Source: an uncultured delta proteobacterium (lineage in GTDB: Bacteria; Desulfobacterota; RBG-13-43-22). From it: a stretch of 64,000 bases of DNA. A model generated the notes under the pieces. The model did not search any database, was not told the DNA's origin, and worked only from the letters and a program-made list of their open reading frames with translations. Position 1 is the first letter of the stretch, and every line of letters starts with the position of its first letter. This document shows, piece after piece, positions 7,735 to 51,483 of the stretch. The stretch lies in NCBI GenBank assembly GCA_963843145.1, contig CAWJJC010000010.1:207823-271822 (forward strand), read 5' to 3'. The position numbers and the translations under genes were made by a program.

Positions 7735-7816
7735 GTTTCCTCCTTATATTAACGGTCACGAAATAATATTGACAGGATTCCTTAACGCCGCCAGTCACAA
7801 CGTAAGACAAAAGACG

Positions 7817-8027: not shown

Positions 8028-8121
8028 AAAAAGAACCCTCCCTGTAAATACAAGTCGAAAAACGACTTTCTGCGAGGCGGGACTCTCCCGCCACTTGAAG
8101 TAAATTCAAGTGGTCCCACCC

Positions 8122-9021: not shown

Positions 9022-9127
9022 GAAGGTCTCCCATTGGTACGAAAAACCACTTCGTGATTTAAAATTCGGTGTTCGATATTCGAACTTCGTTTTTTCCTTT
9101 TCATATTAAACCGTTTTCCCTTGAGGC

Positions 9128-9916
9128 TCAGGATCGGCCTTCCTCGGCCAGGCAGGCGGCGCCAAGGGCGGCGGTGAGCCGAGGGGTCTCCGGAACCCGC
9201 ACCTCCAAACCCAGGGCCTCGCTGACGACCCGGACCAGGCCGGTGTCTTCGGCCCCGCCGCCAGTGAGAACCACCTCCGGCTCCATTTTCACCCTTTTGG
9301 CCAGCAGGGCCACTTTGGCGGCCATGGCGCGATGCACGCCGGCCAGCAGGTCTTCCGGACGGGCGCCTTCAGCCAATCGCGAGACGGTCTCCGATTCGGC
9401 AAAGACGGCGCAGTTGGTGGAAAATTCCACCGGCCTTTCCGATTTCAGGGAAAGTGGGCCGATGGCTTCCCATTCGATCTGCAGGATACGGGCTATGATC
9501 TTCAGGAAGCGGCCGGAGCCGGCGGCGCATTTTTCGCTGATCAGGAAATCGACCACCCGGCCCTCGTTGTTCAGCTTGGCGGCTTTGGTGAACTGCCCGC
9601 CGATATCGATCACGGTGCGGGCCGCTGGGAAGTGGAAACGGCAGCCCCTGGCCTGGCAGGATATGTCGGACACCGTCCGGGCCGAAAAGGGGGCGCTTTC
9701 CGCTCCGACACCGGTGACCACAATGCCGGCGAGTTGTTCCCGGTTCAGCCCGGCCCGGGCCAAGGCCGCCTCCAACACGCCTCGGGCCGTTTCCCGGTAG
9801 CGCCCCCCGGAAGGACACATTTCGGAAGCCAGGATTTTTTGACCGCTGAGCAGCACCGCCTTGATAAAGGCCGAACCGATATCCACTCCGGCAAAACAGG
9901 CGGGCGCTTTGCTCAT
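9128..9916 (-). CDS. Acyl-CoA dehydratase/reductase activase (ASKHA ATPase, [4Fe-4S]), degenerate nucleotide motifs
   Basis: GVDIGS, IDIGGQ, KCAAGSGRFL, CAVFAESE, TGGGA, AALGAA. Confidence 0.88.
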   Translation of the reverse strand: MSKAPACFAGVDIGSAFIKAVLLSGQKILASEMCPSGGRYRETARGVLEAALARAGLNREQLAGIVVTGVGAESAPFSARTVSDISCQARGCRFHFPAARTVIDIGGQFTKAAKLNNEGRVVDFLISEKCAAGSGRFLKIIARILQIEWEAIGPLSLKSERPVEFSTNCAVFAESETVSRLAEGARPEDLLAGVHRAMAAKVALLAKRVKMEPEVVLTGGGAEDTGLVRVVSEALGLEVRVPETPRLTAALGAACLAEEGRS

Positions 9917-10743
9917 TGGAAGAAGGTCACCCCTTCCAGTTTTCTGGCCCGGTTCGGGATCACCCCGCGGGCGGTGAAGTCCATTCCCAAGAGGGCCGCC
10001 CCCAACGCACCGGTGAGGAGGGGTTCATCGGGCACCAGCACCGGGAAACCGACCTGGTCTCCCACGGCCTGGATCAACCCGCTGTTCATGGCCCCGCCGC
10101 CGGTGACTGCCACGTCCTTTTGGATCCCCAGAGCGCGGACCAGATTGACCACCCGCCCGGCAATGGCCGCGTGCAACCCGGCGATGATTTCCGGGATACC
10201 CGCCCCCTCGGCCAGCCGGGAAGTCACCTCGTGTTCGGCAAAGACGGTGCAGGTATTGGAAATAGGGACGGCTTCCTTGGCCATCAGCGAAAGGCCGCCC
10301 ATTTCGGCCAGGGGGATCCCCAGGGTATCGGCGATCACCTCCAGGAAACGGCCGGTACCGGCGGCGCACTTATCGTTCATGACAAAGTTGATGACCTTGC
10401 CGCCGGCGTCCAGCTTGATACCCTTGGAGTCCTGCCCGCCGATATCGATAACCGTCCGGACCGTGGGAAAGAGGGCCCGAATGCCCCGGGCGTGGCAGGT
10501 GATCTCCGTAATCTGCTTGTCGGCGAAGGGGACGTTGATCCGTCCGTACCCGGTGGCCACGATAAAGTCCAGGCCCTCCAGGGCCAGGCCCGTTTTGTCC
10601 AGGATCCCGGCCAGCACTTGCAGGGCTAAATGGCGGTGTTCGGCGCCGGTAGGGCCGATGATTGATCCCAGAACTTTTCCTTCCCCGTCGGTGATAACCG
10701 CCTTGGTCATGGTGGAGCCGATGTCAATGCCGGCATAGGGCAT
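9913..10743 (-). CDS. Acyl-CoA dehydratase/reductase activase (HgdC/BzdQ-like ASKHA ATPase)
   Basis: GIDIGSTMTK, ATGYGR, EITCHARG, IDIGGQDSK, MNDKCAAGTGRFLE, CTVFAE. Confidence 0.92.
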   Translation of the reverse strand: MPYAGIDIGSTMTKAVITDGEGKVLGSIIGPTGAEHRHLALQVLAGILDKTGLALEGLDFIVATGYGRINVPFADKQITEITCHARGIRALFPTVRTVIDIGGQDSKGIKLDAGGKVINFVMNDKCAAGTGRFLEVIADTLGIPLAEMGGLSLMAKEAVPISNTCTVFAEHEVTSRLAEGAGIPEIIAGLHAAIAGRVVNLVRALGIQKDVAVTGGGAMNSGLIQAVGDQVGFPVLVPDEPLLTGALGAALLGMDFTARGVIPNRARKLEGVTFFQ

Positions 10744-10792
10744 AATTATCTTTTGTATACCGTCTCTTTATTGTATTTACCGGTAATCTCTC

Positions 10793-10875
10793 GTCATCCC
10801 CGAATGCCTTTATCGGGGATCCATTGTTCCTTGAGAAAGGCCTGGATTCCCGCTCAGAAGCGCTGCGGAAATGAC
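10793..10875. repeat. REP-like palindromic repeat (GTCATCCCC...GGATTCCCGC...GCGG(A/G)AATGAC family), copy 1
   Basis: Closely similar to 14404-14488; terminal GTCAT/ATGAC inverted repeat. Confidence 0.75.
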
Positions 10876-10895
10876 GCGCATTAATTCCGAGTAGT

Positions 10896-10967
10896 TTTTG
10901 TTTTGGTCATTTGGATTTGGGACTTTCGTGCTTGTTTCGAATTTCGTGCTTCGGATTTCGGATTTAA
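10896..10967. repeat. Degenerate heptamer tandem repeat (TTCGGAT/TTCGTGC-like)
   Basis: ...ttggatttgggactttcgtgcttgtttcgaatttcgtgcttcggatttcggattta; related tract at ~9050-9090. Confidence 0.6.
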
Positions 10968-11031
10968 AGATCGCGCCGGTTCAATACTATTATCGTACCT
11001 GGACCCTTTGCCCCTTTCTCCAACCTTCCAT

Positions 11032-12345
11032 TTACGCCCGCCCCGCCAGGGCCTCGATAAAGGCCCCGATCTGGGCCTTCCAGTGGGCCTCGGAGTAATC
11101 CCGGAGATCGACCATGTCGGAGACCAACTGCATCATGGGGATATCCGTGAATTGACCCAGGAGGTTTTTGATATGCACCTGGCCGACCGTGGTCGCCCGG
11201 CAGGAACGGCAGGCGTGGAAGACCACCCCGTCGATCCGGTAATCGTTGATCATCCCCAGCAGCTTTTCCACGATGGGATGGCCGCTGTGGGCCCGGGCCT
11301 GGTCGTGACGCTGCGTGAAGCGCAGAAAGGTCCGCCAGGCCAGGTATTCGACCGGGTCTTTGATCCGGGCCGGCACTTCCACGGGGTCGTAGCCCCGGTA
11401 AACGTTCTCAATTACGAATACGGCGCCGAAGCTTTCGAAGTAATTAAAGATCCAGAGGGTGTGCCAGGGGGGCAAGCCACCGCCGTAGAGCAGGCGGTAC
11501 TTTTCCTCGGGGATGACGCCGATCTTGTTTTCCGCCTTGGCCTTGACCTCATCGTAGAGCCCCTGGTAGAAATCCACCGCCACCTGGGTGCCGGAGAAAT
11601 AATGGCCGGCCACCATGACGCTGAAGTGGTCCTGGGTCGGCATGGGGCTGGGGACGGCGACGCGCAGTCGGTCGATCTCGTACCAGAGCCGCCAGGACTC
11701 ATCCCCCAGCCGGATGGTCTCCCAGAGCCTCTCTGGATCAAGCTTCTGGCCGGTCTGCTGCTCGAGAAACCCGATCAGACCCTGAAACTGCTCTTTTTGA
11801 TAGTGGATATAGTAGTCCCGCACCCGGTCCAGGTCCGCGTAAACCGGCGGCCCAACCACATCGATATTATAGGTAGGCACGTCCAGGTAGCGCCCCGCCG
11901 CCTGAAACCATTTGAAGCGGGGGTCGCAGACGGCGCTGCTGCCCAGCATCAGGTCTGGGACGGGCATCCCGCCGTCCGGGGCGTTTTCCGGCAGGCCGCC
12001 CAGCTCTTTTCGCAGGCTGTCGAAGCCCAGGCCGATCCGGGCATAGCTGCAAAGCACCTGGGAGTAGCCGTCCGCTTCCGCCTGGAGGAGAAAGCGGTCC
12101 ATGTCGCGCTTGGCGGCGCACAAGCCGGCATAGTTTTCCGTGGGCAGAGGCACGATATCCATGGCCCGCAGGATTTCGTCATACTGGGAAGCCACCATAA
12201 AATAGGCCACTTTCTGGCCCCGGGCCTTGGCTTCGTGGGCGTTCCGGTAGATGCTCTTCACCAGGGCCCGCACCTGCCGGGCCGTTTCCGTGCCTTTGAT
12301 CGCCGTGGTTTTTTGCTTTCCCTTCTCTTCCCTAACCATAACCAT
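11032..12345 (-). CDS. 2-hydroxyacyl-CoA dehydratase / class I aroyl-CoA reductase subunit (HgdA/FldB/BzdO-like)
   Basis: ENYAGLCAAK, LCSYAR, GGMPVPD, CDPRFKWF, FHACRSCR, SDMVDLR. Confidence 0.88.
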   Translation of the reverse strand: MVMVREEKGKQKTTAIKGTETARQVRALVKSIYRNAHEAKARGQKVAYFMVASQYDEILRAMDIVPLPTENYAGLCAAKRDMDRFLLQAEADGYSQVLCSYARIGLGFDSLRKELGGLPENAPDGGMPVPDLMLGSSAVCDPRFKWFQAAGRYLDVPTYNIDVVGPPVYADLDRVRDYYIHYQKEQFQGLIGFLEQQTGQKLDPERLWETIRLGDESWRLWYEIDRLRVAVPSPMPTQDHFSVMVAGHYFSGTQVAVDFYQGLYDEVKAKAENKIGVIPEEKYRLLYGGGLPPWHTLWIFNYFESFGAVFVIENVYRGYDPVEVPARIKDPVEYLAWRTFLRFTQRHDQARAHSGHPIVEKLLGMINDYRIDGVVFHACRSCRATTVGQVHIKNLLGQFTDIPMMQLVSDMVDLRDYSEAHWKAQIGAFIEALAGRA

Positions 12346-12350
12346 TCCCT

Positions 12351-13490
12351 TTAAGTCAGCATTTCCAGAAAGGCCTGGACCCGGGTACGGAGCTGGCCGC
12401 TGGCGGAGGTGGAGTAATCGTCCTCGATCATCAGCACCGGAAGCGGCATTCCCTCCAAGTATTCCCGCAAATCAGGCCCTTCCAGTTCACAGGTATCGCA
12501 GTAGCGAACGATCGTGCCGATGACCCCGTCGACCTTCCATTCCCTGACGAACCGGCCGATGTGCCCGAAGCGGTTTTCCAGATCCTCCTCCCGGGTCCCG
12601 GTCCGGGCCTCAAAGCTGCGGGGGCAGCGGGTTTGCAGGTATCGCCGGGCCAGGCCCTCCAGGGGATCGTCGGTTTCCGGCACGTCGTCCCAGAAGAAGC
12701 GGGTGCCGGTGCAGAGATCGTCCATCACCAGGGAGGCCCCGCTCTCCTCCACCAGTTGAATAAAGGCCGCGTCGTCTATCTCGCTGCCCCAGATGAAGAG
12801 GCGGGGAAGTTTCGGGGTCTGGGGCCGAGGGCGCGCCTGAATCTCGGCGACGGCTTCCTGGACGAGTTTCAGGTGCTCCGCCGTCGGCAGGCCCAGGCCG
12901 GCCACCAGGATCCGGGTGACCTCGGTTCCTGAAACCAGCGGCGGGTCGGCCTTTCGCAGGTCATACAGCTCCCGAAGGACGGCCCGCCGCCGGTTGGACA
13001 AGCGGACGACTTCCCGCAGCCGGTCCGGCTCCAGTTTCCGCCCCGACCACTGCTCCAGGCTGTGGATTAAGTACTCCAGCTCCCGGCGATAGAAAGTGTC
13101 GGAGTCTGGTCCCCGCATATGAGGCACGTTGAGGAGATGGTTGAAGGGAGACGGTTTATTGTGACGCCAGATATGGAACAGGCGCTCCACCGTATCGCAG
13201 CTATGGGGGGCCACGAACCCGTCCAAGAAATCATATTCCCCTTTCAGGGCCAGGTTGAAACAGCTTCGGGCAAAGGGGCAGGCCATGGGCTCGATGTAGG
13301 CATCCGCCTGATCGATGGGCTCACCGGGGCGGCCCTGGATGCGAAAGGGAAGCATCTCGAAAGCGGTGATGATCTCCTCGGGCACGAAGCAGCAAAGATA
13401 GCCGATGACCTTTTGGCCCGCCTCGTGCCATTCCCGGGCGCGCCGGCTTCTATCCTGATAGTAGATCTCTATCTGTTCGAAAGCGTTCAT
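12351..13490 (-). CDS. 2-hydroxyacyl-CoA dehydratase / class I aroyl-CoA reductase subunit (HgdB/FldC/BzdN-like)
   Basis: GYLCCFVPEEII, CPFARS, HSCD, DDLCTG.R, YCD, GQLRTRVQAFLEML. Confidence 0.9.
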   Translation of the reverse strand: MNAFEQIEIYYQDRSRRAREWHEAGQKVIGYLCCFVPEEIITAFEMLPFRIQGRPGEPIDQADAYIEPMACPFARSCFNLALKGEYDFLDGFVAPHSCDTVERLFHIWRHNKPSPFNHLLNVPHMRGPDSDTFYRRELEYLIHSLEQWSGRKLEPDRLREVVRLSNRRRAVLRELYDLRKADPPLVSGTEVTRILVAGLGLPTAEHLKLVQEAVAEIQARPRPQTPKLPRLFIWGSEIDDAAFIQLVEESGASLVMDDLCTGTRFFWDDVPETDDPLEGLARRYLQTRCPRSFEARTGTREEDLENRFGHIGRFVREWKVDGVIGTIVRYCDTCELEGPDLREYLEGMPLPVLMIEDDYSTSASGQLRTRVQAFLEMLT

Positions 13491-35101: not shown

Positions 35102-35119
35102 TGGTTTCTCCTTATTAAG

Positions 35120-35157
35120 TCCTCATGCCCGGGGCGGGAACCCCGAAGCATGAATAT
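35120..35157 (-). repeat. Dispersed ~38-bp repeat, copy 2
   Basis: Reverse complement ATATTCATGCTTCGGGGTTCCCGCCCCGGGCATGAGG matches 13611-13648. Confidence 0.7.
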
Positions 35158-35334
35158 AATGCAATAAAGGCAGTAAATCAGCTCGTCCTTCCGGCCCCAT
35201 CTTAAAAGCGGGTAAACTCCATCCGGAATCTTGGGCAGCGAAGATCTTGGGTCACCCGGATGCCGGATCAGGTCCGGCATGACGGCAACGGCAACTACCT
35301 GAAAACGGTGATCGGTTTTATTCTCGTATTGGAT

Positions 35335-37910: not shown

Positions 37911-39035
37911 ATGCGTTATATCGCACCTTATGTGCTGAAAGATCTTCAGTCCAAAATGGTCTTTGTCGGCGGTCCCCGCCAGGTGGGCAAGACCACCATG
38001 GCCAAGGAGGTTTTAAACGGGTTTCCCAGCGGACGATATTTCAACTGGGATTTTGACGACGACCGTCAGGATATTCTAAAAAAACGGTGGGCGGCGGAGA
38101 ACACCCTGTTGATCTTCGACGAACTGCACAAGTTCCCCCGCTGGAAAAACTGGATCAAAGGCCTTTATGACGTATCCCATTCAAAGCATTCTTTCCTGGT
38201 CACCGGGTCCGCCCGCCTCGACCTCTACCGGCGGGGAGGGGATTCCCTTTTAGGCCGTTATCACTATTGGCGCCTGCATCCCTTCAGCCTCGATGAAATA
38301 CCCAAGGGCCTGACCGCCCGAGAAACCTTCCAACGGTTGATGTCCGTAGGCGGTTTCCCGGAACCTTTTCTGGATAACGATGAACGGGCGGCCCGCCGCT
38401 GGCGGCGCGAGCGCTTCGACCGGGTCCTGCGGGAGGATATCCGGGACCTGTCTCCCATCCGGAACATCCAGTTGCTGAGTCTTTTCCTCGACCTCCTCCG
38501 CCAGCGGGTGGGCGGCCTGGTCACCTTGTCCAACCTGGCGGCCGACATCCAGGTGTCACCCAAAACCGCCGCCTCCTGGTTGGAGGTGCTGGAACGGATG
38601 TACCTGGTGTTTGCCGTCCGACCCTTCACCCGGTCTTTGCCCCGGGCCGTCCTCAAACCCCCCAAGGTCTATTTTTTCGATACCGGCGACCCGCTGGTGG
38701 ATGAAGGGGAGCGTTTTGAAAACCTGGTGGCGGCCTCCCTGCTGAAAAGACTGCAATTCCTGGAGGACCGAGACGGGTACCGCTACGAATTGCGTTATAT
38801 CCGGGATAAGGAAGGCCGGGAAGTGGATTTTGTTATCCTGAAGGATAATCGTATCGAGGAACTGATCGAAGTAAAATGGGCCGACGAAAACATTTCCAGG
38901 TCCCTCCTCTATTATGCGGAGAAGCTTCGTCCGCACAAAGCCACCCAGGTGGTAGCCCGTTTAAAAAGGCCCTACGACCAGGGAAAAATTCAAGTTCGGG
39001 ACCCTTTCTCTTATTTCCATTCCGATCTTTTTTAA
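37911..39035 (+). CDS. AAA_14 ATPase with C-terminal DUF4143 domain
   Basis: GPRQVGKTT, IFDELH, VTGSA, L.GR, GGFPE, KVYFFDTG, FENLV, EVDF...IEVK. Confidence 0.9.
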   Translation: MRYIAPYVLKDLQSKMVFVGGPRQVGKTTMAKEVLNGFPSGRYFNWDFDDDRQDILKKRWAAENTLLIFDELHKFPRWKNWIKGLYDVSHSKHSFLVTGSARLDLYRRGGDSLLGRYHYWRLHPFSLDEIPKGLTARETFQRLMSVGGFPEPFLDNDERAARRWRRERFDRVLREDIRDLSPIRNIQLLSLFLDLLRQRVGGLVTLSNLAADIQVSPKTAASWLEVLERMYLVFAVRPFTRSLPRAVLKPPKVYFFDTGDPLVDEGERFENLVAASLLKRLQFLEDRDGYRYELRYIRDKEGREVDFVILKDNRIEELIEVKWADENISRSLLYYAEKLRPHKATQVVARLKRPYDQGKIQVRDPFSYFHSDLF

Positions 39036-40038: not shown

Positions 40039-41217
40039 ATGCAAGGATATATTGATCGACATCTTTCCGGGGAGCTGAAAAAATCCCTGACCCACAACCC
40101 GGTAACGGCGCTTATCGGGCCGAGGCAGTGTGGAAAATCGACGCTGGCCCGACATATTTTGAAAGACCGCCCGGAGGCCCTGTTTCTGGATCTGGAGCTT
40201 CCTTCAGACCTGCGGAAACTGGCTGATCCCGAATTTTTCCTCAGGGAACATGCAGCCAACATGGTTTGCATCGATGAGGTCCAGCAAAGACCTGATCTTT
40301 TTCCCGTCCTCCGGGCCTTGGTGGACCTGGACCGGCGGCCGGGCCGGTTCCTGCTCCTCGGCTTTGCCTCGCGCGATCTGATCCGCCGAGGGGGCGAAAC
40401 GTTGGCCGGACGTATTCGTTACCTGGAGTTGACCCCCTTTGCCTGGTCTGAGTTGCAACCCGAAGCGGAACGAAAAGGGTGGGATTTCAAAAGACATTGG
40501 TGGCGGGGCGGCTTTCCTCCGGCCTTTCTCTCCGAAGAAAAGGCCCAGAGCGCTGCCTGGCGGCGAGATTTGATCCAGGATTATCTGAGCCGGGATATCC
40601 CGTAATCCGAATTTGCCATCCCGGCCCCGACCATGAGACGTTTCTGGCAAATGCTGGCCCATTATCACGGCGGACTGCTGAATGCCTCTAAACTAGGCCA
40701 GGCCTTGGACGTGTCCAATAAAACCGTTCGAAAGTACCTGGATATTCTGAAAGAAACCTTTATGGTCCGGGTGCTGCCGCCCTCAGAAGTCAACTTGAAA
40801 AAACGCCTGGTGAAATCTCCCAAGGTTTATCTGCGCGACAGCGGATTGCTGCACACCCTCCTAGAAATTGAAACTGCCACCGATCTTTACGGACACCCGG
40901 TCTTCGGCGCCTCCTGGGAAGGCTGGTGCCTGGAGCAGATTGTCACCGCCCTGCCCCTCTGGCAGCCCGCCTTCTACCGGTCCTCATCGGGCGAAGAAAT
41001 CGACCTGATCCTGGACAAAGGGCGTCGGCGCCTGGCCTTTGAATTCAAGGCCTCCCTTTCCCCCCACCTAACCCGGGGCTTTCCCGGGACCCTCGAGGCG
41101 CTGCAACCGGAAAAGACCTGGGTCGTCTGCCCCATGAGCGAGGCCGGCTACAACTTACGCCCAGGCGTCCGGGTAATCGGCATCGAGGAATGTTTGAAGG
41201 ATGTAAAAAAGGCATAA
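40039..41217 (+). pseudogene. AAA_14-DUF4143 ATPase with an in-frame TAA at 40603-40605
   Basis: GPRQCGKST, IDEVQ, GGFP, SPKVYLRDSGLLH, GASWEG, EIDL...FEFK; both halves share one frame separated by a single stop; GFAS stands where the family usually has GS. Confidence 0.8.
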
Positions 41218-41318
41218 TTTGTTCCATGATTTGTTGACACCTTCAATAATTTTAGTAGGATAATACCGAGAAACCAGAATGGAGATGGTATTTTCTTGTT
41301 TAGCCGGGTATATAAAAT

Positions 41319-41561
41319 ATGAGTCCTTCAATTTTTAGAGCAAAAGGGTACCGATTCTATTTTCTGTCAAACGAAGAAGAGCGCATCCATATTCACGTGA
41401 TGAGCGAAAGCGGAGAAGCGAAATTCTGGTTGGAACCCATTATCTCCTTGGCTGTCCATCACAAGCTGACTCCGAAAAAACTTGGTGAAATCCAGGGTAT
41501 TATTGAGGAACATAAGGATGAAATCGTCCAAGCATGGCGAAAACATTTTGGTAAGCGTTGA
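41319..41561 (+). CDS. DUF4160 family protein
   Basis: P.IFR..GYRFYFLSNE...HIHV...GEAKFWL...AW..HF. Confidence 0.88.
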   Translation: MSPSIFRAKGYRFYFLSNEEERIHIHVMSESGEAKFWLEPIISLAVHHKLTPKKLGEIQGIIEEHKDEIVQAWRKHFGKR

Positions 41562-41835
41562 GAACATTACACCTTTTGGCATTTGGCTTTTCGTCAAGGG
41601 AAGGGAGTACTTTCTCAGCTATAAGGATTATCCTTACTTCAAGGATCAAACCCTGAAATCGATACAGGCTGTTCAGTTGCTTCAGGGGTACCACTTATAT
41701 TGGCCGGAACTGGATGTGGACTTGGAAATTGATAATCTCGAAAACCCGGAAAAATATCCCTTGAAATGGAAAGCCGCCAAAACTAAACGTATGAGACAAT
41801 CCGACGAAACGGGCAAAAAGATGGCCTCCCGCTGA
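41518..41835 (+). CDS. DUF2442 family protein
   Basis: VENITPFGIWL, FLSY.DYPYF, LYWPELDVDL....LENPEKYPL; overlaps the DUF4160 gene. Confidence 0.85.
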   Translation: MKSSKHGENILVSVENITPFGIWLFVKGREYFLSYKDYPYFKDQTLKSIQAVQLLQGYHLYWPELDVDLEIDNLENPEKYPLKWKAAKTKRMRQSDETGKKMASR

Positions 41836-41942
41836 TTTGGTTGCTATGCGCTGGGGTGGATCATCCAGGGATTGTCCTTTTTCGATTTAAAACAACCGAA
41901 TAGAATGATGTCCCGCTTCGCTTTATGAGAGTCCCCCTCCTT

Positions 41943-42030
41943 GTCATTGTGGGCGAAGCGAAGCAATCCCCCCATGGAGCTTATAAACTGTTCGTGAGAT
42001 TGCTTCGTCGCTTCGTCCCCCGCAAAGACA
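41943..42030. repeat. REP-like element (GTCATTG...CGAAGCAATC / GAGATTGCTTCG...CGCAA.GAC family)
   Basis: CGAAGCAATC and GATTGCTTCG are complementary; related GTCATCCCG...CGGGATCC at ~42318-42346 and GGATGCCGGA...TCCGGCATGAC at ~35258-35284. Confidence 0.65.
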
Positions 42031-42793
42031 GTCCGGAGGACTTTTTGTGAAACCTTCCTAATTGAGGTCGACCAAAACCAATTCCTTTGATCAAAGGCTT
42101 ACCCCGGCCGCCCCAAAAGCCGGGCTGAGCACAATCCAAACTGAGATAACTTATTCGGAAGGTTTTTGGCCCGGCTTCCGGCTGGGGCAAAATATCCTGT
42201 TCATCCTGTCAATCCTATCCTTGTCTTTTCACCTCACCCCTTACTCCTCACCCCTACTGCCCTTGGGTTGCCTGACCTAAGACCCTCAAACAACCCTCAT
42301 AGGTATTTGTTTTCGCTGTCATCCCGAACCCGATTCGGGATCCAGGACCTTTAAACTACCCTGTCCTGGTCGCTTCCCGAGAAGAAGATATGTAGCACTG
42401 CCGCCCCCGGCTGCGCCTATTCAACTAAATTTACAGCAAAAACCCTTGACAACCCTATTTTTTCGAAATAAAGTCGAACGAAATTTCCTTTCTTAGCTAA
42501 CCCGGTCCTTCATTTATTTTGCCGCTTTGCCAGCGCAAATGGGAGTCGAGAATGCCAGCATTCGTTCCCAATTTGTCCTCCAGGGGGCTCTCCCCTTCTG
42601 ACATTTACTCATTATACGAACGCAGGGCTTATCTAAATGGCCTTTATAATGACCACTTTCGGAAGGCTCAAGGGCCTTATCGCCGGCATTTCAATCCTGA
42701 AAAAGAAAGGTTTAAGCCTTGGCCCAAACTAGACAAATTGAATGAAGTGAACAACGTTCCGCTTTATTAAAATAGGGCAAGAGAATCGAGACA

Positions 42794-44296
42794 ATGGCAA
42801 AAAAAACAAGATCTCCGGCATCGTTTTTCAGTTACGTTCAATTAAATGATAAGCATGATAGTGGAAGGCTCACGAAATTGCGAGAACGGCTTGAAAAGGA
42901 AGTGGAAGTTCACACTGGCGAACCCTTTCCCATTTTTCAAGACCGAAACGATATAAGCTGGGGTCAGGCATGGAAGGAGCGAATTGAAGATGCCATTGAT
43001 TCTTCTACCTTCCTGATTGTTATCGTTACCCCGAGTTACCTCAAAAGTCCGGCCTGCCGCAAGGAATTTGATCTGTTTCTTAAGCGTGAGAAGAAACTCA
43101 GAAGAAATGACCTTATTCTGCCTTTAATCTATATTGAAACCCCCGCTATTATAAAAAAAGAAGGGAAAGAAAAGAATCCTATCGCATGTGAAATCGCAAA
43201 ACGTCAGTGGGCGGACTGGCGAGACCTAAGATTCGAACCGTGGACCAGTCCGGAGGTTGGCAAACGATTAGCTACGCTGGCGATGACGATCCGTGATGCA
43301 ATATATAGTAGCAGTAACCTTTCAATTTATCCAAAAGGAAAAAGGAAAGGTGGGAAAAGACAAACAAGGATAGACATCTTTGAAAAGTCTCACAGGTTAT
43401 TGTTGGAAGATAAACAAATAGCTCCAATATCTAAGTCACATGAAGATGAGATACCACTTAGACACACGGCATACGTAGAACCGACAACCCTGATTGTCGA
43501 TTCGATTCCTTCAAGTGGCAATTTCAAAACAATCACTGAGGCAATTAACAAAGCCCAAGCTGGTTACCGTCTCATCATCCGGCCAGGAATATACAGAGAG
43601 AGTGTTATCATTCAAAAACCACCTGAGATAATTGGGGATGGTAACATGGAAGTTATTGTTATTGAATCGAAAGGTAGAAATGCTCTCTTCTTTAATACCG
43701 GATTCGGAAGAGTAGCAAACCTTACGATACGTCTGAACGAAGGTGGCGATAGTTCCGCGGTAGATATAGCCCAGGGGAAATTTGAATTGGAAGGCTGTGA
43801 TATATCGAGCCAGTCCTGGGGTTGTGTGGCGATTCATGGTGGTGCAGATCCACGCCTGAGACGGAACCAAATTCATGGCAGTGAGAGAAACGGTATAATC
43901 GTGTACGAGAATGGCAAGGGCACAATAGAAGACAACGATATATATGAAAATAGTTTTTCATGCGTTATGATTAAAGGAGATGGCGATCCAGTTTTACGAC
44001 GGAATCGAATCCGGCTAGGTAAAGTAAGTGGTGTATTCGTGGCTATGGATGGGAAAGGGACACTGGAGGAAAACGAAATTTACAGGAATGTTTTTTCAGG
44101 TGTTTCCATTGCAAAAGATGGAAACCCTATCCTGAGACGGAATAGGATTTCTCATAATGGTCGTTATGGAATATGGATCGGGAAAGGGGCAGGTGGTATT
44201 TTCGAAAGCAACACTCTCACGAGTAATGATGTGAGCCCTTGGAGAATTGATGAGAAGAACCCGGATAGGATAGTCCGAAAAGATAATATTGAGTGA
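42794..44296 (+). CDS. TIR domain fused to right-handed parallel beta-helix (PbH1/CASH-like) repeats
   Basis: FFSY...IFQD..DI.WG..W...I...I....FLI.IVTPSY..S..CRKEF (TIR with conserved Glu); C-terminal TI.EAI...G..I.PG.Y.E followed by ~23-residue G..I....P.L..N.I repeats; AT-rich. Confidence 0.85.
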   Translation: MAKKTRSPASFFSYVQLNDKHDSGRLTKLRERLEKEVEVHTGEPFPIFQDRNDISWGQAWKERIEDAIDSSTFLIVIVTPSYLKSPACRKEFDLFLKREKKLRRNDLILPLIYIETPAIIKKEGKEKNPIACEIAKRQWADWRDLRFEPWTSPEVGKRLATLAMTIRDAIYSSSNLSIYPKGKRKGGKRQTRIDIFEKSHRLLLEDKQIAPISKSHEDEIPLRHTAYVEPTTLIVDSIPSSGNFKTITEAINKAQAGYRLIIRPGIYRESVIIQKPPEIIGDGNMEVIVIESKGRNALFFNTGFGRVANLTIRLNEGGDSSAVDIAQGKFELEGCDISSQSWGCVAIHGGADPRLRRNQIHGSERNGIIVYENGKGTIEDNDIYENSFSCVMIKGDGDPVLRRNRIRLGKVSGVFVAMDGKGTLEENEIYRNVFSGVSIAKDGNPILRRNRISHNGRYGIWIGKGAGGIFESNTLTSNDVSPWRIDEKNPDRIVRKDNIE

Positions 44297-44489
44297 GAAA
44301 GGGGACATCCTACGTAAAGCGGGACTTTGTCCACTACATTCAATAACTCCATTTGTGCCCTCCCCCCGGCCCTCTCCAACTCACCTAGGGAATGGGTTGT
44401 GCCGGACTATAAATGGAACATGAATTGGCCATGAGCCGACCACGAACCGTATCCAATTGAGCCATCGTCGTTACCTATGGCGCTCATCC

Positions 44490-44788: not shown

Positions 44789-45232
44789 TTAGGCGGCCTT
44801 TGGGGAATGGAGCACTTCCCAGCCAAGGCAGGCGAGTTTAATGTAGTAGGGTATCGGTTTGTGCCCTCCGTGATAGTAGAGGATCGTTCGGCGGGAAATG
44901 CCCAGTGCCTTGGCCGCGGCGCTTAAAGATAGTCCATTCCGCTCCAGCCACGCATTGAACTCGGTCACCGGATATGCGGCGCCGGTTTGCTCTTTGCCCA
45001 AACGATACAAAGAATCCGCATCGATACCGATCTCACCATCGGCCCACTCCACACCATGTCCCCATTCCTCCACGGCCACCCCGGCAAAAAAGCTTGATTT
45101 TTTCAGCCGTTCATATCCGGGGGAATGGAGATAGTCGGACAGGTCGACCTTGGTCTGTTTACCGCTGCGCCAGACAATGGTCAGAAGAGCCGGCGCTTCC
45201 GCCGTAACAGAATCTATTCGTTGTTGATTCAT
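44789..45232 (-). CDS. DUF2442 domain protein with C-terminal HTH
   Basis: VDL...V.EWGHGVEW....IDADSL, then F.AW....GLSL..AAKALGISRRTI.YY..G..PIP. Confidence 0.85.
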   Translation of the reverse strand: MNQQRIDSVTAEAPALLTIVWRSGKQTKVDLSDYLHSPGYERLKKSSFFAGVAVEEWGHGVEWADGEIGIDADSLYRLGKEQTGAAYPVTEFNAWLERNGLSLSAAAKALGISRRTILYYHGGHKPIPYYIKLACLGWEVLHSPKAA

Positions 45233-45238
45233 ACTAAT

Positions 45239-45469
45239 TCACCTCCCATTCAATTCGTGCCAGGCCGTCCACAGCCGCCCCTTGTTGGCCTCCGCCCATT
45301 GGCGAGCCTCGATCAGGATAGTGGCCGGCGTGCGTCCAATGATGACCTCGAGCGTTTCAATGGATATTGATGCCCTTCCCTCAGGCCACCGCAGATGAAA
45401 ATGCGGTAGGCCATGCTCCTGACCAAATACCTCAATTTTCCAATTGCGGTTATAATGAATACGGGTCAT
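45239..45469 (-). CDS. DUF4160 family protein
   Basis: EHGLPHFH, ASISI.TL..I.G, A..WA..N...L...W..LN; start at MTRIHY. Confidence 0.85.
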   Translation of the reverse strand: MTRIHYNRNWKIEVFGQEHGLPHFHLRWPEGRASISIETLEVIIGRTPATILIEARQWAEANKGRLWTAWHELNGR

Positions 45470-45475
45470 GAGGGA

Positions 45476-45504
45476 AGTATAGGGAATAATATTCTCTATG
45501 TCAA
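45476..45504 (-). promoter_or_regulatory. Near-consensus promoter with palindromic operator; leaderless start
   Basis: TTGACA-N17-TATACT, then 6 nt to ATG 45469; ATAGGGAATA-A-TATTCTCTAT palindrome covers the spacer. Confidence 0.72.
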
Positions 45505-45704
45505 TAATAGGTTCTGTTTCCGGTTTCAGGGGGTCGATTGTAAAGGGGGATGTAGTCCATTTCATTCAAAAACCGTTTCTGGAAAGAGCAAAATAGGGGA
45601 AGAACGGTGCGGGCCTCGGACAGCCTCGGAGCTTGAATGGACCCAAGAACAAGAAGCCCAAGCGGATTCGAATTCGAATAAGATGAGCGGGTAATTTGAT
45701 GGCC

Positions 45705-46151
45705 CTATTTGGGAATGGCGGGCGTGTAGCTTTTTAAATCCTGAAAATATTTACGGAAAATTCCCCGGTCCCTGGTTAAAAGGGCATCGCACCGACTCAG
45801 GGCGAAGCCGCCTATATAAAAATCGGAAAGTACATGGCCTTTATGCGGCAATGGTTTCCGGCAATGGGGGCAGATAACCTTGCCTTTCTTCTTTAGGTAT
45901 TTCATCCAGCGTTGGGCGGCTACAGAAGCTGCCTCCTGATCCAGGCTTTCAACCCGGATGGAATGATCCTCCAGAAATTGCGACGCTTCCTGGATGTTTC
46001 CCTGAAACTGGGGAAGGAGTTCGGCGAACACTATGGAAGGTATCACCAGAACTTCTCCTGCTGATAGGGCGGCATAAAAAACTTCCTGGTATTCCCGAAA
46101 TTCGTCTTTCAATACATCGATCAGGATCGAGGTATCCACACAGACCCGCAT
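45705..46151 (-). CDS. vapC: VapC/PIN domain toxin with CxxC insert
   Basis: VCVDTSILID, IVFAEL, CPHC, SDFYIG, LLTRD. Confidence 0.88.
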   Translation of the reverse strand: MRVCVDTSILIDVLKDEFREYQEVFYAALSAGEVLVIPSIVFAELLPQFQGNIQEASQFLEDHSIRVESLDQEAASVAAQRWMKYLKKKGKVICPHCRKPLPHKGHVLSDFYIGGFALSRCDALLTRDRGIFRKYFQDLKSYTPAIPK

Positions 46152-46369
46152 CAAACGGCCCCTCGGATTTCTTCGATATATTGATCGGTCGTTTGATGAC
46201 CCCGATATTTTCCGCACCATTTCTTTTTGAGCCGTTCCAAAGGATCGGCCACCAGAACGAATTGATTTCCTTGACGAACCAGATCGACTCTGGTTCCGGG
46301 AATGATTCCCAGGGATTTGCGAACCTGGGGCGGAATCGTAATTTGGTATTTTGCGGTTACTCTGGTCAT
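46151..46369 (-). CDS. AbrB/MazE family antitoxin
   Basis: VTAKYQITIPPQVRKSLGIIPG; stop overlaps the toxin start. Confidence 0.9.
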   Translation of the reverse strand: MTRVTAKYQITIPPQVRKSLGIIPGTRVDLVRQGNQFVLVADPLERLKKKWCGKYRGHQTTDQYIEEIRGAV

Positions 46370-46489
46370 AGGCTTTTTTCTCCTGAGGTATACTGTTTAT
46401 GTATATTAAGCATACTTATTTATTGCGGCGGTGTCAATCCAAAGTCTCCAAACTTCTCCCTAAGAACATCTTGTTGCCCTATGCGTCTA

Positions 46490-46921
46490 TCACGGCCCCC
46501 CTACCCAATGAACCTGAGGGAATGATTTCCTGGCCGAATTATAGAAGCGTCGGTCCCCGGTCCAGAGAAGACAATTATGCCAGAGGGCCAAAGCCAGGTA
46601 GTGGGCGTCATAGGTCGCCGGCTGACCGAGTTGCAGGGACAGTTCCAGTGCCCGGCTGTGAAGGCCGCCCTCCTCCTGGATTTCAATTCCAAAGGCCATG
46701 ATCACTTCCAGGGCTTCCTGCGCTTGAAGCAAATTCATTTCCTTGCGCCTGACCCGTTTGTACAGGGCGTTGGTAACCTCGGTTAACAGCGGGCAGGGGG
46801 CCAGCAGGCCGGTATCTTCCTTACCCCAGAGTTCAGCCAAGCGGAGGGCCTGTTCGGAATAGCTTTCCGGAACGGCCCACATGACGGCCAGGCTGGCATC
46901 GATCACTAGGTACCTTTCCAT
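46490..46921 (-). CDS. vapC: VapC/PIN domain toxin
   Basis: LVIDAS, EVTNAL, YDAHYLALA, LWTGD. Confidence 0.9.
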   Translation of the reverse strand: MERYLVIDASLAVMWAVPESYSEQALRLAELWGKEDTGLLAPCPLLTEVTNALYKRVRRKEMNLLQAQEALEVIMAFGIEIQEEGGLHSRALELSLQLGQPATYDAHYLALALWHNCLLWTGDRRFYNSARKSFPQVHWVGGP

Positions 46922-46930
46922 GAAGCTTCC

Positions 46931-47209
46931 CTACCTTCGGGCCTGGCGGATCAAATCGGCTGAATTGACCTGGAAAACCTTCCCCCCGAAGGTCTTCCGC
47001 TGGAAGTTCCGGGCTCGATCCACGGCCTGGCTCAATCGGGAACCCAGGTCAGGGGCATTATTCCCCGTAGAAAGCTGAGCCTGAACGGCCTGAAGACAGA
47101 ACTGAGAGAGGGTAAGATTCCGTTCGGCGGCCATCAATTTGATCCGCCTGCGGGTAACCTGATCCGGAAGATAGATGTTCAAACGTACCGGGGAATTTTC
47201 CTTTCGCAT
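46931..47209 (-). CDS. Putative ribbon-helix-helix type antitoxin
   Basis: RLNIYL....RRRIKL.AA....TLSQFC..A; C-terminal NSADLIRQARR; directly upstream of vapC; SD GGAGG. Confidence 0.75.
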   Translation of the reverse strand: MRKENSPVRLNIYLPDQVTRRRIKLMAAERNLTLSQFCLQAVQAQLSTGNNAPDLGSRLSQAVDRARNFQRKTFGGKVFQVNSADLIRQARR

Positions 47210-47400: not shown

Positions 47401-49393
47401 ATGGATTTCAAAAAAACAAATAGAATTAGTGAGTTGGGTAATTCCGGGGCCATCACCCGGCGGGCATTTTTGACCTATTCGGCCGGGGCATTCGGTGCGC
47501 TGACGCTGAATTCATTGGCTTGGGGGGATGTCGGCGCTGCCCCAAGGCAGTACCGAAATACCGCAATACCCGATTAGGCCTAAAGTCACTACGACGCTTC
47601 AGGAGATGATTACCTTTCCCAGGACTTTGCCGGGTCTGACCATAACTCAAATTTCCCAGGTCGAACAATACGACAAGTTTGGCTATGGCCACTGGACGCT
47701 CGGTTCGCCGCTTCCGTTGATGCCGAGAACGGACCTCATGCCCAAAAACTACAGCCGGCCGTCGCCGGCCCGAAAAGCCAAACTCATCCACTTCTTCACT
47801 TTTTCCGATATTCACATTACGGACAAGGAAGCGCCGAATCAACTGATCCATTTTCAACAGGCTGAACGATTCGCCTATAACAACACTTCCATCTACTCGC
47901 CGGTGATGATGCGCACCACGCACGTGTTGGATGCCGCCGTTCAGACGGTTAATGCCCTGCACCGGCAGAACCCCTTCGATTTCGGCCTCTCGCTCGGCGA
48001 CACCTGCAACAGCACCTCGTACAACGAGCTCAGGTGGTATCTCGACGTCTTCGACGGCAAGGTCATTACACCCAGTTCCGGCGCCCATCTCGGCGCGGAC
48101 AGCCTGGACTACCAAAAACCCTACCGGGCCGCCGGACTGGACAAGTCCATCCCCTGGTATCAGGCGATGGGCAACCATGATCATTTCTATATTGGATCGT
48201 TTCCCGTGGATGCGAACCCGGCGCTGGGCATTCGGCAGTCGTACCTTTCCGCTTCCGTCTGGGCCATGGCCGACATTCTGGCCCCCAACCTGCGGACCTT
48301 TCCCGTTTTGTTCAACATGGCCAGGATGACCGCCAAGCCGCAGTTCTACACGGGCGTGATCGACGGTTCGAACCCCTACGGGAAAATCATCCACGCCGGG
48401 CCGGCCGACGATCCGGCTTTTGCCGCCGGCGCGCCCAAGGTCGTCGCCGATCCGGATCGCCGCTCACTGCTGAGGACCGAGTGGATAGAAGAATTTTTCA
48501 AGACGACGACCCAACCGGTCGGCCACGGCTTCCATCTGGTCGACAAAAACAGTCCCTCTGGTTTTACCTGTTACAGCTTCGTTCCCAACCCAAAGATACC
48601 GCTCAAGGTGATCGTGCTGGACGATACCCAAAGGGAAGACGACGGCTCGACCGATATCCATGGCCATGGTTATCTGGACGCGCAGCGCTGGGCCTGGCTG
48701 CAAGCCGAACTGGCCAAGGGTCAGGCCGACAACCAGTTGATGATTATCGCCGCCCATGTCCCCATCGGTGTTGCGCCCGTGGGCTCGGAAATGGAATGGT
48801 GGGGCGAGACGACTACTATCGCGCCCCAGCACCGGAACGCCGTGAGCCTCGCTGACTTGGTCAAGACGCTGCAGAACACGCCGAATCTGCTCATGTGGAT
48901 TGCCGGACATCGGCATTTGAACACCGTCAAGGCCTTTCCCTCGGCGGATCCCGCCAAACCGGAGCAAGGCTTCTGGCAGGTGGAAACCTCGTCGCTGAGG
49001 GATTTTCCCCAACAGTTTCGGACTTTCGAAATCTATCTGAACGGCGACTATACCGTTTCCATGGTCACGGTTAACGTTGATCCGGCGGTCGCGGAGGGCA
49101 CGCCTGCCGCCACATCGCGCCGGCACGCCATCGCTGTGCAGCAGATCGTCCAGAATGAATTGAATCAGAATTCCCTGAACAATTTGACGGCCGGCGGTAC
49201 CGGTAAGCTCCCCGTGCCCAGCATGGATCCAACCCGGCCACAGAGCGACGCCCCCCAGACCAACGATCCGACGATCCAGTATGTGGATCTGAGCAAGGCC
49301 GCCGTTCCCGTACCGTGCCACGGTTCGTACAACGCGGAACTGTTCAAGCAGTTGAGTCCGCAAATGATCAGCGTGCTGAAAAAGACCATGTAA
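47401..49393 (+). CDS. TIGR03768-like metallophosphoesterase with Tat signal; frameshift in G6 at 47522-47527
   Basis: ATG 47401 gives MDFKK...ITRRAFLTYSAGAFGAL..LAWG; removing one G joins it to ORF 47528..49393 with SDIHITDKE, LGD, GNHDH, AAH.P, GHRH, VETSSLRDFPQ. Confidence 0.85.
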
Positions 49394-49674: not shown

Positions 49675-51483
49675 ATGGTCAATAAATTTCGTAAACCGTT
49701 TATTAAACTTTCCTTCTCGGTCCTATGCTTGTTTTTGTCCGGCCTCTGCCTGCCGTTTGAACCCTTGGGAATTAACTCGGCGCAGGCCCAACCCCCCTTG
49801 GGGTTGTCAATGAAAACCTATCTTCCTCTGGTGCTTAGCCCTTGGGCTTTCTCCTGGCCGATCGCCACCGAGGTTTTCACTACGGCGGAACAGCAGGTCC
49901 ACCCTCTTGGATTATCTACAGAAACGCCGCAGATTCCCCCGGCAGACGTGCCGCTTTACGCCCAATACGGTTACAGCGCCTGGTACGCAGGGGACGGCTT
50001 ACCGCACGTGAAGCGGACTGAACTGGCACCCGGATACAACACGAACGCAACCCCTGCCGCGCGTCTGTTGTCATTCTTTACCATTTCCGACATTCACATC
50101 GCCGACAAGGAATCTCCGGCCCAGGTGAATTACGCCGCCTGGAAGGCACCCTTTGGTACCGGCAATTCGTCAGCCTGGTCGCCGGTCGTTAATTCGACGA
50201 CCCAGGTCCTGGATGCCGCCGTCCAGACGATTAATGCCTTACATAAAAAAACACCTTTCGATTTAGGCATTGCCCTGGGTGACGCGATCAACAACACCCA
50301 GTATAACGAGCTGCGCTGGTATATCGATGTCCTGGACGGTAATCTCATTATTCCCAGCTCCGGCGCTCATGTCGGAGCCGACACCATCGATTATCAGAAA
50401 CCTTTCCGGGCCTTCGGGCTCGATAAAGCGATCCCCTGGTATCAGGTCATCGGCAACCACGATCAGTTCTGGATGGGTTCGGCCTATGAGAGCCCCAAGT
50501 TCCTACAGGCTCATGTGGGGAATACCGTCCTCGACCAGGGAATCGATCCCAATATTAATATTGCCATCAATGAGACCGGTTTTTATATGGGCGTGGTCGA
50601 CGGCTCAACACTTTATGGGGATATCATCAAATCAGGGCCGGAGGCTGACTTTCCCACGCCGCCAACGGTCATTGCCGACGCCAATCGCCATTCACTAGCG
50701 ACCGCCGCTTCCTCCAGCCAGAATTGGATGCGCGAATTCTTTACAACGACGTCGAACCCGGTCGGTCACGGTTTCGCCCAGACCAACGTGGATAACGACC
50801 TTACCTCGTATAGCTTCCAGCCGAAGTCGGGTATACCGATCAAGGTTATCGCCCTCGATGATACGTGCAAGGGAGAGGGCCAGCCAAATTATGCCGCCGG
50901 CTGTCTCGACCAGACCCGGATCGACTGGCTCAAAGGCGAACTCCAGCAGGGTCAGGACGAAAACCAGCTCATGATTATCGCGGCCCATATCCCGGTCAAC
51001 CCGCAAACGGTCCTCATCGACGATGGAACGCGCATGCGTGTCTTTGACACCCCGGCCGATGCCTCGTTGATCGCCATCCTCCACAACTATCCGAATCTCA
51101 TCCTCTGGATCTCGGGACATCGTCACCTGAACACCGTTAGCGCTCAACCGTATGATTCGACGATAGTAGGTCAAGGTCCGGAAAACAGCTTCTGGGAGGT
51201 CGAAACGTCCTCGCTCCGGGATTTTCCCCAGGAGTTCAGGACCTTCGACATCCGCCGCAACAGTGACAACACCCTTTCCATTATCGTTACCAATGTGGAT
51301 CCCGCGGTGGTCGCCGGCTCGCCCGCGGAAAAATCGAGGGGTTATGCCATCGGCGCCGCGCGCGTCTTTGGTACCTACCCCCTCTCGAGTACGGCTTCCC
51401 AGGCTTACAATGCCGAACTGGTGAAACAATTGACCCCCGCCATGCAGGCGATCATCGCCAACTATGGATCGCCGCTGGAGTAG
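49675..51483 (+). CDS. TIGR03768-like metallophosphoesterase (paralog), Sec signal followed by YLPLV motif
   Basis: SDIHIADKE, LGD, GNHDQ, AAHIP, GHRH, VETSSLRDFPQ, YNAEL.KQL. Confidence 0.88.
   Translation: MVNKFRKPFIKLSFSVLCLFLSGLCLPFEPLGINSAQAQPPLGLSMKTYLPLVLSPWAFSWPIATEVFTTAEQQVHPLGLSTETPQIPPADVPLYAQYGYSAWYAGDGLPHVKRTELAPGYNTNATPAARLLSFFTISDIHIADKESPAQVNYAAWKAPFGTGNSSAWSPVVNSTTQVLDAAVQTINALHKKTPFDLGIALGDAINNTQYNELRWYIDVLDGNLIIPSSGAHVGADTIDYQKPFRAFGLDKAIPWYQVIGNHDQFWMGSAYESPKFLQAHVGNTVLDQGIDPNINIAINETGFYMGVVDGSTLYGDIIKSGPEADFPTPPTVIADANRHSLATAASSSQNWMREFFTTTSNPVGHGFAQTNVDNDLTSYSFQPKSGIPIKVIALDDTCKGEGQPNYAAGCLDQTRIDWLKGELQQGQDENQLMIIAAHIPVNPQTVLIDDGTRMRVFDTPADASLIAILHNYPNLILWISGHRHLNTVSAQPYDSTIVGQGPENSFWEVETSSLRDFPQEFRTFDIRRNSDNTLSIIVTNVDPAVVAGSPAEKSRGYAIGAARVFGTYPLSSTASQAYNAELVKQLTPAMQAIIANYGSPLE

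Follow-up and report, generated by a model that had tools for sequence, protein, structure and literature searches.

Bacterial TIR domains work as NADases or as signal synthases, cleaving nicotinamide adenine dinucleotide (NAD+) after TIR self-association. In the TIR-bearing proteins with nucleotide-binding and leucine-rich-repeat domains (NLR proteins), the bNACHT and Avs members of the signal-transducing STAND ATPases, TIR-SAVED and SPARTA, the TIR serves as effector at the N-terminus and a recognition module forms the C-terminal part. Here we describe a gene at 42794–44296 (+ strand) in a 64,000-nucleotide stretch of DNA from an uncultured delta proteobacterium (GenBank assembly GCA_963843145.1, contig CAWJJC010000010.1, positions 207,823 to 271,822; hereafter the window, in whose coordinates positions are given). 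On sequence grounds its 500-residue product, P0001, is probably an NAD-cleaving TIR enzyme fused to a repeat β-helix related to that of FBXO11. TIR heads on sensor modules are known; a β-helix sensor without a nucleoside triphosphatase (NTPase) is new. Our preferred reading, to which we assign a probability of about 0.5, is that P0001 is a ligand-gated TIR NADase with the β-helix as its receptor, a self-contained cytoplasmic sensor–effector. A first-pass annotation, made by a model from the nucleotide sequence alone, had proposed a sensor–effector immune protein. The single-gene organisation, the conserved glutamate and the binder-like helix bear this out, whereas the toxin–antitoxin (TA) setting proved to be local and homologues lie mostly among housekeeping genes.

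STAND, TIR-SAVED and SPARTA systems bring an NTPase or nucleotide-binding oligomerization domain (NOD), a SAVED domain, or an APAZ or Argonaute partner, whereas P0001 has only its β-helix. It contains no P-loop NTPase of the NACHT, NB-ARC or AAA_16 type, which places it outside the STAND/NLR proteins. CBASS, Pycsar and SPARTA do not fit either: the SAVED_TIR and Aga TIR models match residues 45–112 only, the TIR core, and no cyclase or Argonaute gene lies near P0001 in the window. With NLR-like immune proteins it nevertheless shares a principle, since swappable effector heads are found on P0001-type β-helices too and the same TIR subtype sits on an AAA_35 NTPase; by Foldseek, the TIRs of SPARTA and of plant NLRs are structurally like that of P0001. 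The AbTir-type TIRs and ThsB have in common with P0001 the TIR fold and a conserved glutamate on the αC helix, with entry 7uxr the best match in the Protein Data Bank (PDB). They lack the 270-residue β-helix, whereas P0001 lacks a ThsA partner and has alanine for the tryptophan of the WxxxE motif. At the other end of the protein, the CASH/PbH1 β-helix is homologous to that of FBXO11, a eukaryotic protein with an F-box and a UBR zinc finger (zf-UBR); P0001 has a TIR head, neither F-box nor zf-UBR, and far fewer coils.

The statement of the first-pass annotation that no named system has this architecture stands, with PADLOC matching the TIR core only and no paper found. PADLOC-DB v2 holds no full-length model for the protein, the best match being PDC-S66 (E = 1.6e-08, residues 45–111 only). 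Source annotations are generic, either 'right-handed parallel beta-helix repeat-containing protein' or 'F-box protein 11', the latter being the Joint Genome Institute (JGI) annotation of many bacterial members. No description of a TIR–β-helix protein was found in the literature covered, outside which lay most subscription journals and supplementary files, and no experiment on any family member was found there. The portion of PMC8195603 consulted names LRR, WD, TPR, pentapeptide and HEAT repeats, and the terms beta-helical, pectin, PbH1, right-handed and FBXO11 are absent from that portion.

The open reading frame (ORF) of P0001, whose coordinates include the stop codon, is intact, with zero internal stops, and its assignment draws on the ORF list and translation, on Pfam and on full-length homologues of 41–54% identity. 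Pfam places TIR_2 at residues 21–144 with 54.2 bits (cut-off 28), with the TIR model at 35.4 bits (cut-off 21.3), Beta_helix at 86.8 bits (cut-off 25.9) and NosD at 55.1 bits; NCBIfam adds TIGR03804, para_beta_helix, with 4 repeats and 60.2 bits. No models other than those for TIR and β-helix appeared in the Pfam, NCBIfam or PADLOC scans of the protein. A full-length AlphaFold2 model from a 40-sequence alignment, with a mean predicted local distance difference test score (pLDDT) of 86.5, supplies the structure prediction that the first-pass annotation had called for, and consists of a TIR, a disordered linker and a right-handed β-helix, with no third domain. The TIR domain spans residues 9–176 (42818–43321, + strand), has the flavodoxin-like order of strands and helices, and is modelled with a pLDDT of about 90 except in the loop at residues 52–58. 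The linker, residues 177–229 (43322–43480, + strand), has pLDDT values below 50 at 177–192 and 205–224; it is basic at its start, with 7 K/R in the 20 residues 177–196, and varies in both length and sequence among aligned homologues. The β-helix follows at residues 230–500 (43481–44293, + strand), with an N-cap, 23-residue coils and a conserved C-terminal cap. By Kyte–Doolittle hydropathy no 19-residue window exceeds a mean of 1.01, and the first 30 residues average −0.92; P0001 therefore has no signal peptide or membrane segment and is a cytoplasmic protein. These results uphold what had been read from the translation, namely an N-terminal TIR with a conserved glutamate (CRKEF, residues 88–92), a basic linker, about 270 residues of β-helix repeats (pLDDT about 96) and the lack of a signal peptide.

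The putative catalytic glutamate, Glu91 (codon 43064–43066, + strand), lies in the motif A87-C88-R89-K90-E91. It is invariant in 40/40 aligned full-length homologues and in 28/28 TIR-only sequences, alignments in which Cys88, Asp50 and the Trp56-Gly57 of the loop are also kept. Its alignment partners are the glutamate of 'WTEYEL' in 7uxr and that of 'WCLMEL' in flax L6, and we take the aligned glutamate of the WxxxE helix to be the catalytic one in NADase-type TIRs. A TIR-only AlphaFold2 model (predicted template-modelling score 0.81) adopts a flavodoxin-like α/β fold, and Foldseek matched it, with a probability of 1.00 and template-modelling (TM) scores of 0.5–0.7 on the target, to L6, chicken TLR15, the SPARTA TIR-APAZ protein, AbTir and SARM1; plant RPS4 and Cat1 were further structural matches. 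The same TIR subtype, at 53–55% identity, occurs in triple-TIR, TIR-TIR-AAA_35 NTPase and TIR-vWA proteins. Prediction of a full-length homodimer from two copies of P0001 gave a score of 0.00, which is no answer and speaks neither for nor against self-association.

When a profile of 28 family TIRs was compared with the PDB, the best match was the bacterial TIR 7uxr (E = 8.7e-07), followed by flax L6, with the AbTir entries 7uwg and 7uxu lower in the list. Entry 7uxr was deposited with a set of TIRs that produce isomers of cyclic ADP-ribose (cADPR), and this ranking favours a second explanation, in which the TIR makes a cADPR-type isomer that acts on an SIR2, SLOG or Macro receptor encoded elsewhere, as in a dispersed Thoeris-like system. 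A TIR_2 and SIR2_2 gene pair on contig C6 of the same genome indicates that a responsive type of effector is present in the cell, but that pair has its own TIR. The ThsB_TIR model scores 20.3 bits, below its cut-off of 21.2; P0001 has no SIR2 or SLOG neighbour in the window, and none of 80 homologous loci shows a conserved partner. A mobile single gene that needed an unlinked partner would, moreover, rarely work after transfer, and we consider this explanation improbable. Pfam and PADLOC scans of the window also agree with the earlier observation that no ThsA-like (SIR2/SLOG) partner, cyclase or STAND ATPase adjoins the gene, and show no Argonaute gene nearby.

The β-helix is modelled with pLDDT values of 94–98. 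Each coil contributes three short strands to a three-sheet right-handed helix, and coils of types A and B, 23 residues each, alternate to give a 46-residue unit. Its nearest solved folds, by Foldseek and by sequence, are the AlgE and AlgG alginate epimerases, pectin esterases and phage tailspikes, and weak Pectinesterase and DUF1565 matches fall on the N-cap. Such likenesses would suit a carbohydrate-active or envelope protein of epimerase, lyase or esterase type with an incidental TIR-like domain, or a secreted TIR toxin. The fold is indeed shared with AlgG/AlgE and with pectin esterases and lyases, but identity to the solved structures is 9–17%, TM scores over the whole model are 0.2–0.4, the Pectinesterase match reaches 17.1 bits against a cut-off of 27, and the NCBIfam epimerase_AlgG model, whose cut-off is 700, gives 17.6 bits. 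AlgG and AlgE carry a catalytic DPHD motif and are periplasmic or secreted, whereas in P0001 the AlgG sequence 'GIDPHD' corresponds to 'GIIVYE', so that DPHD has become IVYE and the motif is not kept, and there is no export signal or membrane segment. No secretion or polysaccharide genes are conserved near homologues, and much closer relatives are found among cytoplasmic multi-domain proteins and FBXO11-like proteins. The epimerase/lyase and secreted-toxin readings, which we regard as highly improbable, were rejected on the loss of DPHD, the lack of an export signal and the closer cytoplasmic relatives.

Among those relatives is an F-box plus zf-UBR protein of Chromosphaera perkinsii, with which the β-helix is 38% identical across 201 residues (E = 3e-34), N-cap included; a Balamuthia F-box protein is matched as well. 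The PDB matches of the β-helix include no FBXO11-like chain. To locate variation within the helix, we collected 800 ungapped 46-residue units from 184 TIR-bearing relatives, whose proteins hold from 1 to 9 units. The strands with 'P-x-L-R-R-N-R-I' and 'G-T-L-E-D-N-D-I' are nearly invariant across units. Entropy peaks at positions 4, 8, 10, 11, 27, 28, 31, 33 and 37, all of them within the first strand of a coil or immediately behind it; the remaining two strands are nearly invariant. The face of this first strand, in the first parallel β-sheet (PB1), is where helices of this kind usually bind their ligands. The nine positions account for 34% of the repeat differences within proteins against 20% expected, a figure that is merely descriptive since the positions were picked from the same data and the comparison is circular. 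Repeats are 0.577 identical on average within proteins and 0.528 between them, with a maximum of 0.83 in P0007; homogenisation within proteins is thus only modest, and we do not claim strong concerted evolution. Taken together, the loss of the AlgG DPHD motif, the homology to the FBXO11 receptor and the placing of variable positions on a single strand face make the β-helix look like a binding module and not an enzyme, judging from alignments and the model, and accord with the first-pass view of it as a binder.

Under our preferred reading, the FBXO11/CASH-type β-helix would act as a receptor whose ligand is most likely a protein, contacted probably through the exposed face of PB1 and the turn that follows. 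The TIR would be an NAD+-consuming enzyme held inactive as a monomer on its flexible linker. A foreign or stress-derived ligand would cluster the TIR domains, and head-to-tail contacts between them would then build a composite active site around Glu91 and permit NAD+ cleavage. As a result the cell would stop growing or die, or possibly a nucleotide signal would be produced. The enzymatic activity on NAD+, its switching on by oligomerisation, the identity of the ligand and the opponent, be it phage or something else, are inferred only; the domains, the fold, the conserved glutamate, the single-gene organisation, the patchy horizontal distribution, the swapping of heads and the lost epimerase motif are observations.

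P0001 belongs to a large family. A word-indexed search scored 8,000 candidates, of which 1,331 were relatives at E ≤ 1e-3, and the best 120 of these 1,331 all combine TIR_2 with Beta_helix at 41–54% identity over 90–100% of the query. In an exhaustive search of representatives clustered at 50% identity, 11,078 relatives passed a threshold of E ≤ 1e-3, and 1,392 one of E ≤ 1e-30; phmmer detects this TIR in 85 of the 150 best representatives. The architecture is common to more than 1,300 homologues, which are spread over at least 12 phyla, archaea included. The search for this architecture suggested by the first-pass annotation thus recovered a large family, but the enrichment near defence genes that was to be checked along with it was not shown.

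The β-helix is not confined to TIR proteins. We examined the heads of 54 of the 65 β-helix relatives without this TIR, leaving out the 2,617-residue P0262 and ten short proteins, most of which lack an N-terminal region. Protein kinases were the most frequent (19), followed by divergent TIR_2 domains (6), Peptidase_C14 caspases (5), and CHAT, HSP70 and eukaryotic F-box heads (2 each); SIR2_2, PNP_UDP_1, SEFIR and Lipase_3 occurred once each, and the rest were unrecognised. TIR, SIR2, PNP, caspase and CHAT domains make up the effector set of NLR-like conflict systems. The exchange of effectors, together with a patchy and horizontally spread occurrence, fits a conflict-gene-like mode of life.

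That occurrence is sparse within lineages. A single copy is present in the source genome (5.35 Mb, 97.9% complete, 6.9% contamination), and searches with P0001 found no homologue in any of three other genomes of the genus (77–94% complete), none in 17 genomes of the same family, and no full-length homologue in 20 genomes of the same phylum, two of which gave marginal matches at E of about 1e-5. The pattern recurs in other hosts. In the family of G041, the Pyrinomonadaceae genome that carries locus L011, 3/41 genomes have a full-length match and 7 more the β-helix alone (two genomes of this sample, G057 and G076, are unpublished); in the genus of G042, Streptomyces, 1/41 genomes has a full-length match and one more a β-helix fragment. 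From data with one genome per species, 263 stretches encode a relative, and we kept 80 loci, which by record title comprise 23 from Acidobacteriota, 18 from Actinomycetota (9 of them Streptomyces), 9 from Chloroflexota, 6 from archaea (Methanosarcinales, Methanoperedens, Methanothrix and relatives), 5 from Desulfobulbaceae/cable bacteria, and the rest from several other phyla. A quick maximum-likelihood tree of 75 sequences grouped 16/17 Actinomycetota, nested the six sequences from archaea among those from bacteria, and required at least 4 origins for the Acidobacteriota. P0001 itself falls with an unclassified bacterium and two Anaerolineae sequences, with a support of 97 in the Shimodaira–Hasegawa-like approximate likelihood ratio test (SH-aLRT). 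Streptomyces sp. NPDC002889 has three family copies on different contigs (L017, L071 and L077), two of which are close in the tree, which indicates a local expansion.

At the locus itself, the gene has a GC fraction of 0.428 against 0.569 for the window, as its earlier description as AT-richer implied. A search with 16 kb of DNA located a gene-sized segment, 42752–44310, that has no counterpart in the three other genomes of the genus. The match to G002 runs to 42751, 43 nt 5′ of the start codon, and the match to G003 begins at 44311, 15 nt 3′ of the stop, with flanks conserved at 81–96% identity. No flanking direct repeats or target-site duplication were found around the segment. The equivalent site in G002 (L086, G002:C11, 15644–17271, − strand) has an 85-residue ORF, a 464-residue pentapeptide-repeat protein and then an IS630-type transposase, with no TIR among its proteins, and that in G003 has a HicB gene. 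Given the pentapeptide-repeat gene and the transposase in G002, the insertion site is a variable cargo spot. Sparse occurrence, the gene-sized gap between conserved flanks, the GC contrast and the nesting in the tree form the pattern of an accessory and transferable gene, with stretches of vertical descent.

The family travels without a fixed companion. ORFs in the 80 loci were called by a simple longest-ORF rule and their 1,169 products clustered. The family's own cluster was present in 74/80 loci, and the next neighbour clusters, in 8, 8 and 7 loci, reflect synteny within one taxon. There is no conserved partner gene across the 80 loci, and since neighbour families recur only through synteny within a taxon the gene is a single-gene unit, as had been suspected from this locus alone. 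A few loci have clear defence surroundings. In L001, from a metagenome-assembled genome of Verrucomicrobiae, the homologue lies between a TIR-STING gene (CAP12-PCTIR_TIR plus prok_STING) and a bSEFIR gene (6788–12553), and these three TIR/SEFIR-type genes in a row are clearly a defence island; in L046 it stands beside PDC-S70 and a UvrD/GajB-like helicase.

Several observations weigh against an immune NADase. The tryptophan of WxxxE is alanine throughout the aligned TIR–β-helix family, and the kinase and Hsp70 heads borne by the same β-helix are not death effectors. The surroundings of most homologues are ordinary: Pfam matched 59 of the 116 different genes directly adjoining homologues (E ≤ 1e-5), about 52 of them being metabolic, translation or envelope genes such as those for tRNA synthetases, a dihydroorotate dehydrogenase-like protein, RNase III, FtsY, GatB and peptidases. 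Only 6–7 of the 59 were defence- or mobile-like (TIR-STING, resolvase, transposase, DUF3368, SLATT/DUF4231, DUF222-HNH, HTH). PADLOC matched 5/116 immediate neighbours and 10/139 at positions ±2/3 (50 loci), most of these matches being generic (methyltransferase, ABC ATPase, cysteine desulfurase, Lon-like). These scans covered ±3 crude ORFs in 50–74 loci, and an association of the family with defence islands was not shown, since the scans lacked a background for comparison and relied on crude ORF calls. In 7 Pyrinomonadaceae-type loci the gene follows a dihydroorotate-dehydrogenase-like gene in conserved synteny, and in 3 SAR202/Dehalococcoidia loci it lies between RNase III and FtsY; conserved synteny of this kind in some lineages suggests stable retention and not rapid turnover. 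The first-pass annotation had held that conserved housekeeping contexts would speak against immunity, and such contexts are what we find for most neighbours and for some syntenic lineages, with few loci defence-like. The phage collection yielded no family member, and plasmid records gave only partial matches, to the TIR alone or the β-helix alone, with 0 records at ≥80% coverage.

The β-helix module may be a general substrate adaptor. P0001 could then be an enzyme of ordinary cell regulation, in which the β-helix recruits an endogenous protein and the head acts nearby; its TIR would provide local NAD+ turnover, a signalling nucleotide or a scaffold for regulating stress responses or development in prokaryotes of complex organisation. 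The CASH domain of FBXO11 recruits substrates for ubiquitination, and kinase and Hsp70 heads fit the same logic of bringing a bound protein to an enzyme: like the F-box, they modify bound substrates and do not kill. The predominance of housekeeping neighbours, the synteny kept in some lineages and the many filamentous or complex hosts (Streptomyces, cable bacteria, Chloroflexota, Methanothrix) point the same way. Yet a conserved endogenous substrate should have left a conserved partner or a core-gene distribution, whereas the gene is sparse within lineages (1/4 genomes in its own genus, 3/41 and 1/41 in the others), has crossed between domains of life and sits here as a low-GC, gene-sized insertion. 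The caspase, CHAT, SIR2 and PNP heads that co-occur on the β-helix are, in addition, typical death effectors. On this balance we judge a role in ordinary regulation rather unlikely, and retain the ligand-gated NADase as the preferred reading.

The low-GC variable stretch 41210–44310 (GC 0.442) contains, besides the TIR–β-helix gene, a TA-like DUF4160/DUF2442 pair at 41319–41835 (+ strand, by Pfam), and other DNA takes its place in G003 and G001. Downstream, at 44789–47209 (− strand), Pfam identifies three small gene pairs, DUF2442-HTH/DUF4160, MazE/PIN, and PIN with a 92-residue upstream ORF, which are partly conserved in genomes of the genus; like the DUF4160/DUF2442 pair upstream, they are context only. 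The flanking TA-type pairs in all are Phd/PIN, DUF4160/DUF2442 twice, MazE/PIN, and PIN with a small upstream ORF. The gene does therefore lie within a TA cluster here, as first described, but for the family that setting is peculiar to this genome. An AAA_14/DUF4143 ATPase of 374 residues (37911–39035), 3.8 kb upstream, matches the PADLOC candidate PDC-S01 (E = 1e-54). A second such gene, 1.6 kb upstream (40039–41217), is split into 188 residues with AAA_14 and 194 residues with DUF4143 and HTH_11, and is probably a frameshifted copy of the intact one. No link between these ATPases and family members elsewhere was found. A promoter-like TTGACA-17-TAAAGT (42446–42474, + strand), with 10/12 consensus matches, lies 5′ of a small ORF (42519–42770) and of the gene, in DNA shared with G002 (42416–42751 conserved); the scan that found it is weak, with 6 sites in the region against 3.6 expected by shuffling.

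Just 5′ of the inserted gene lies a dispersed element of about 120 nt (41934–42066 and 42301–42350, and again at about 35110–35160) with the inverted repeat 'GGGCGAAGCGAAGCAATC ... GATTGCTTCGTCGCTTCGTCCC'. It has dozens of matches, at 73–81% identity, on many contigs of three genomes of the genus and looks like an element of the repetitive extragenic palindromic (REP) or miniature inverted-repeat transposable element (MITE) type. Further along the window, two tandem paralogous ORFs, 47528–49393 (621 residues) and 49675–51483 (602 residues), have long identical motifs in common, such as 'FFT.SD.HI.DKE.P', and the second has a hydrophobic N-terminus. Elsewhere in the genome, the contig C6 pair mentioned above (G000:C6:153063–154156, − strand) comprises a TIR_2 gene (91.7 bits, in a 140-residue frame) directly upstream of SIR2_2 in a 1,014-residue frame, a possible Thoeris-like or TIR+SIR2 defence pair, and a third TIR_2 gene lies at C20:675800–676111.

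Beyond this locus, we tentatively suggest that TIR–β-helix proteins belong, as one of its branches, to a large and so far unrecognised class of innate immune receptors of bacteria and archaea, single-chain and NTPase-free, in which the PB1 face recognises invader proteins, TIR, SIR2, PNP, caspase, CHAT, SEFIR, kinase and Hsp70 domains serve as swappable heads, and from which the FBXO11 receptor descended. Should our preferred reading of P0001 hold, it would reveal a new coupling of recognition to TIR activity, in which a rigid β-helix stands where other systems have NTPase hubs, cyclic-nucleotide sensors or Argonautes. It would also offer a prokaryotic model for substrate binding by the structurally unsolved CASH domain of FBXO11, and trace one more eukaryotic signalling module to a bacterial root. 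If the β-helix is instead a general adaptor, the family would still constitute a regulatory system, so far uncharacterised, of Streptomyces, Acidobacteriota, Chloroflexota, cable bacteria and methanogens. Because the family is large, occurs in bacteria and archaea, and has a sensor common to kinase, caspase, SIR2 and PNP heads, the characterisation of one member would annotate thousands.

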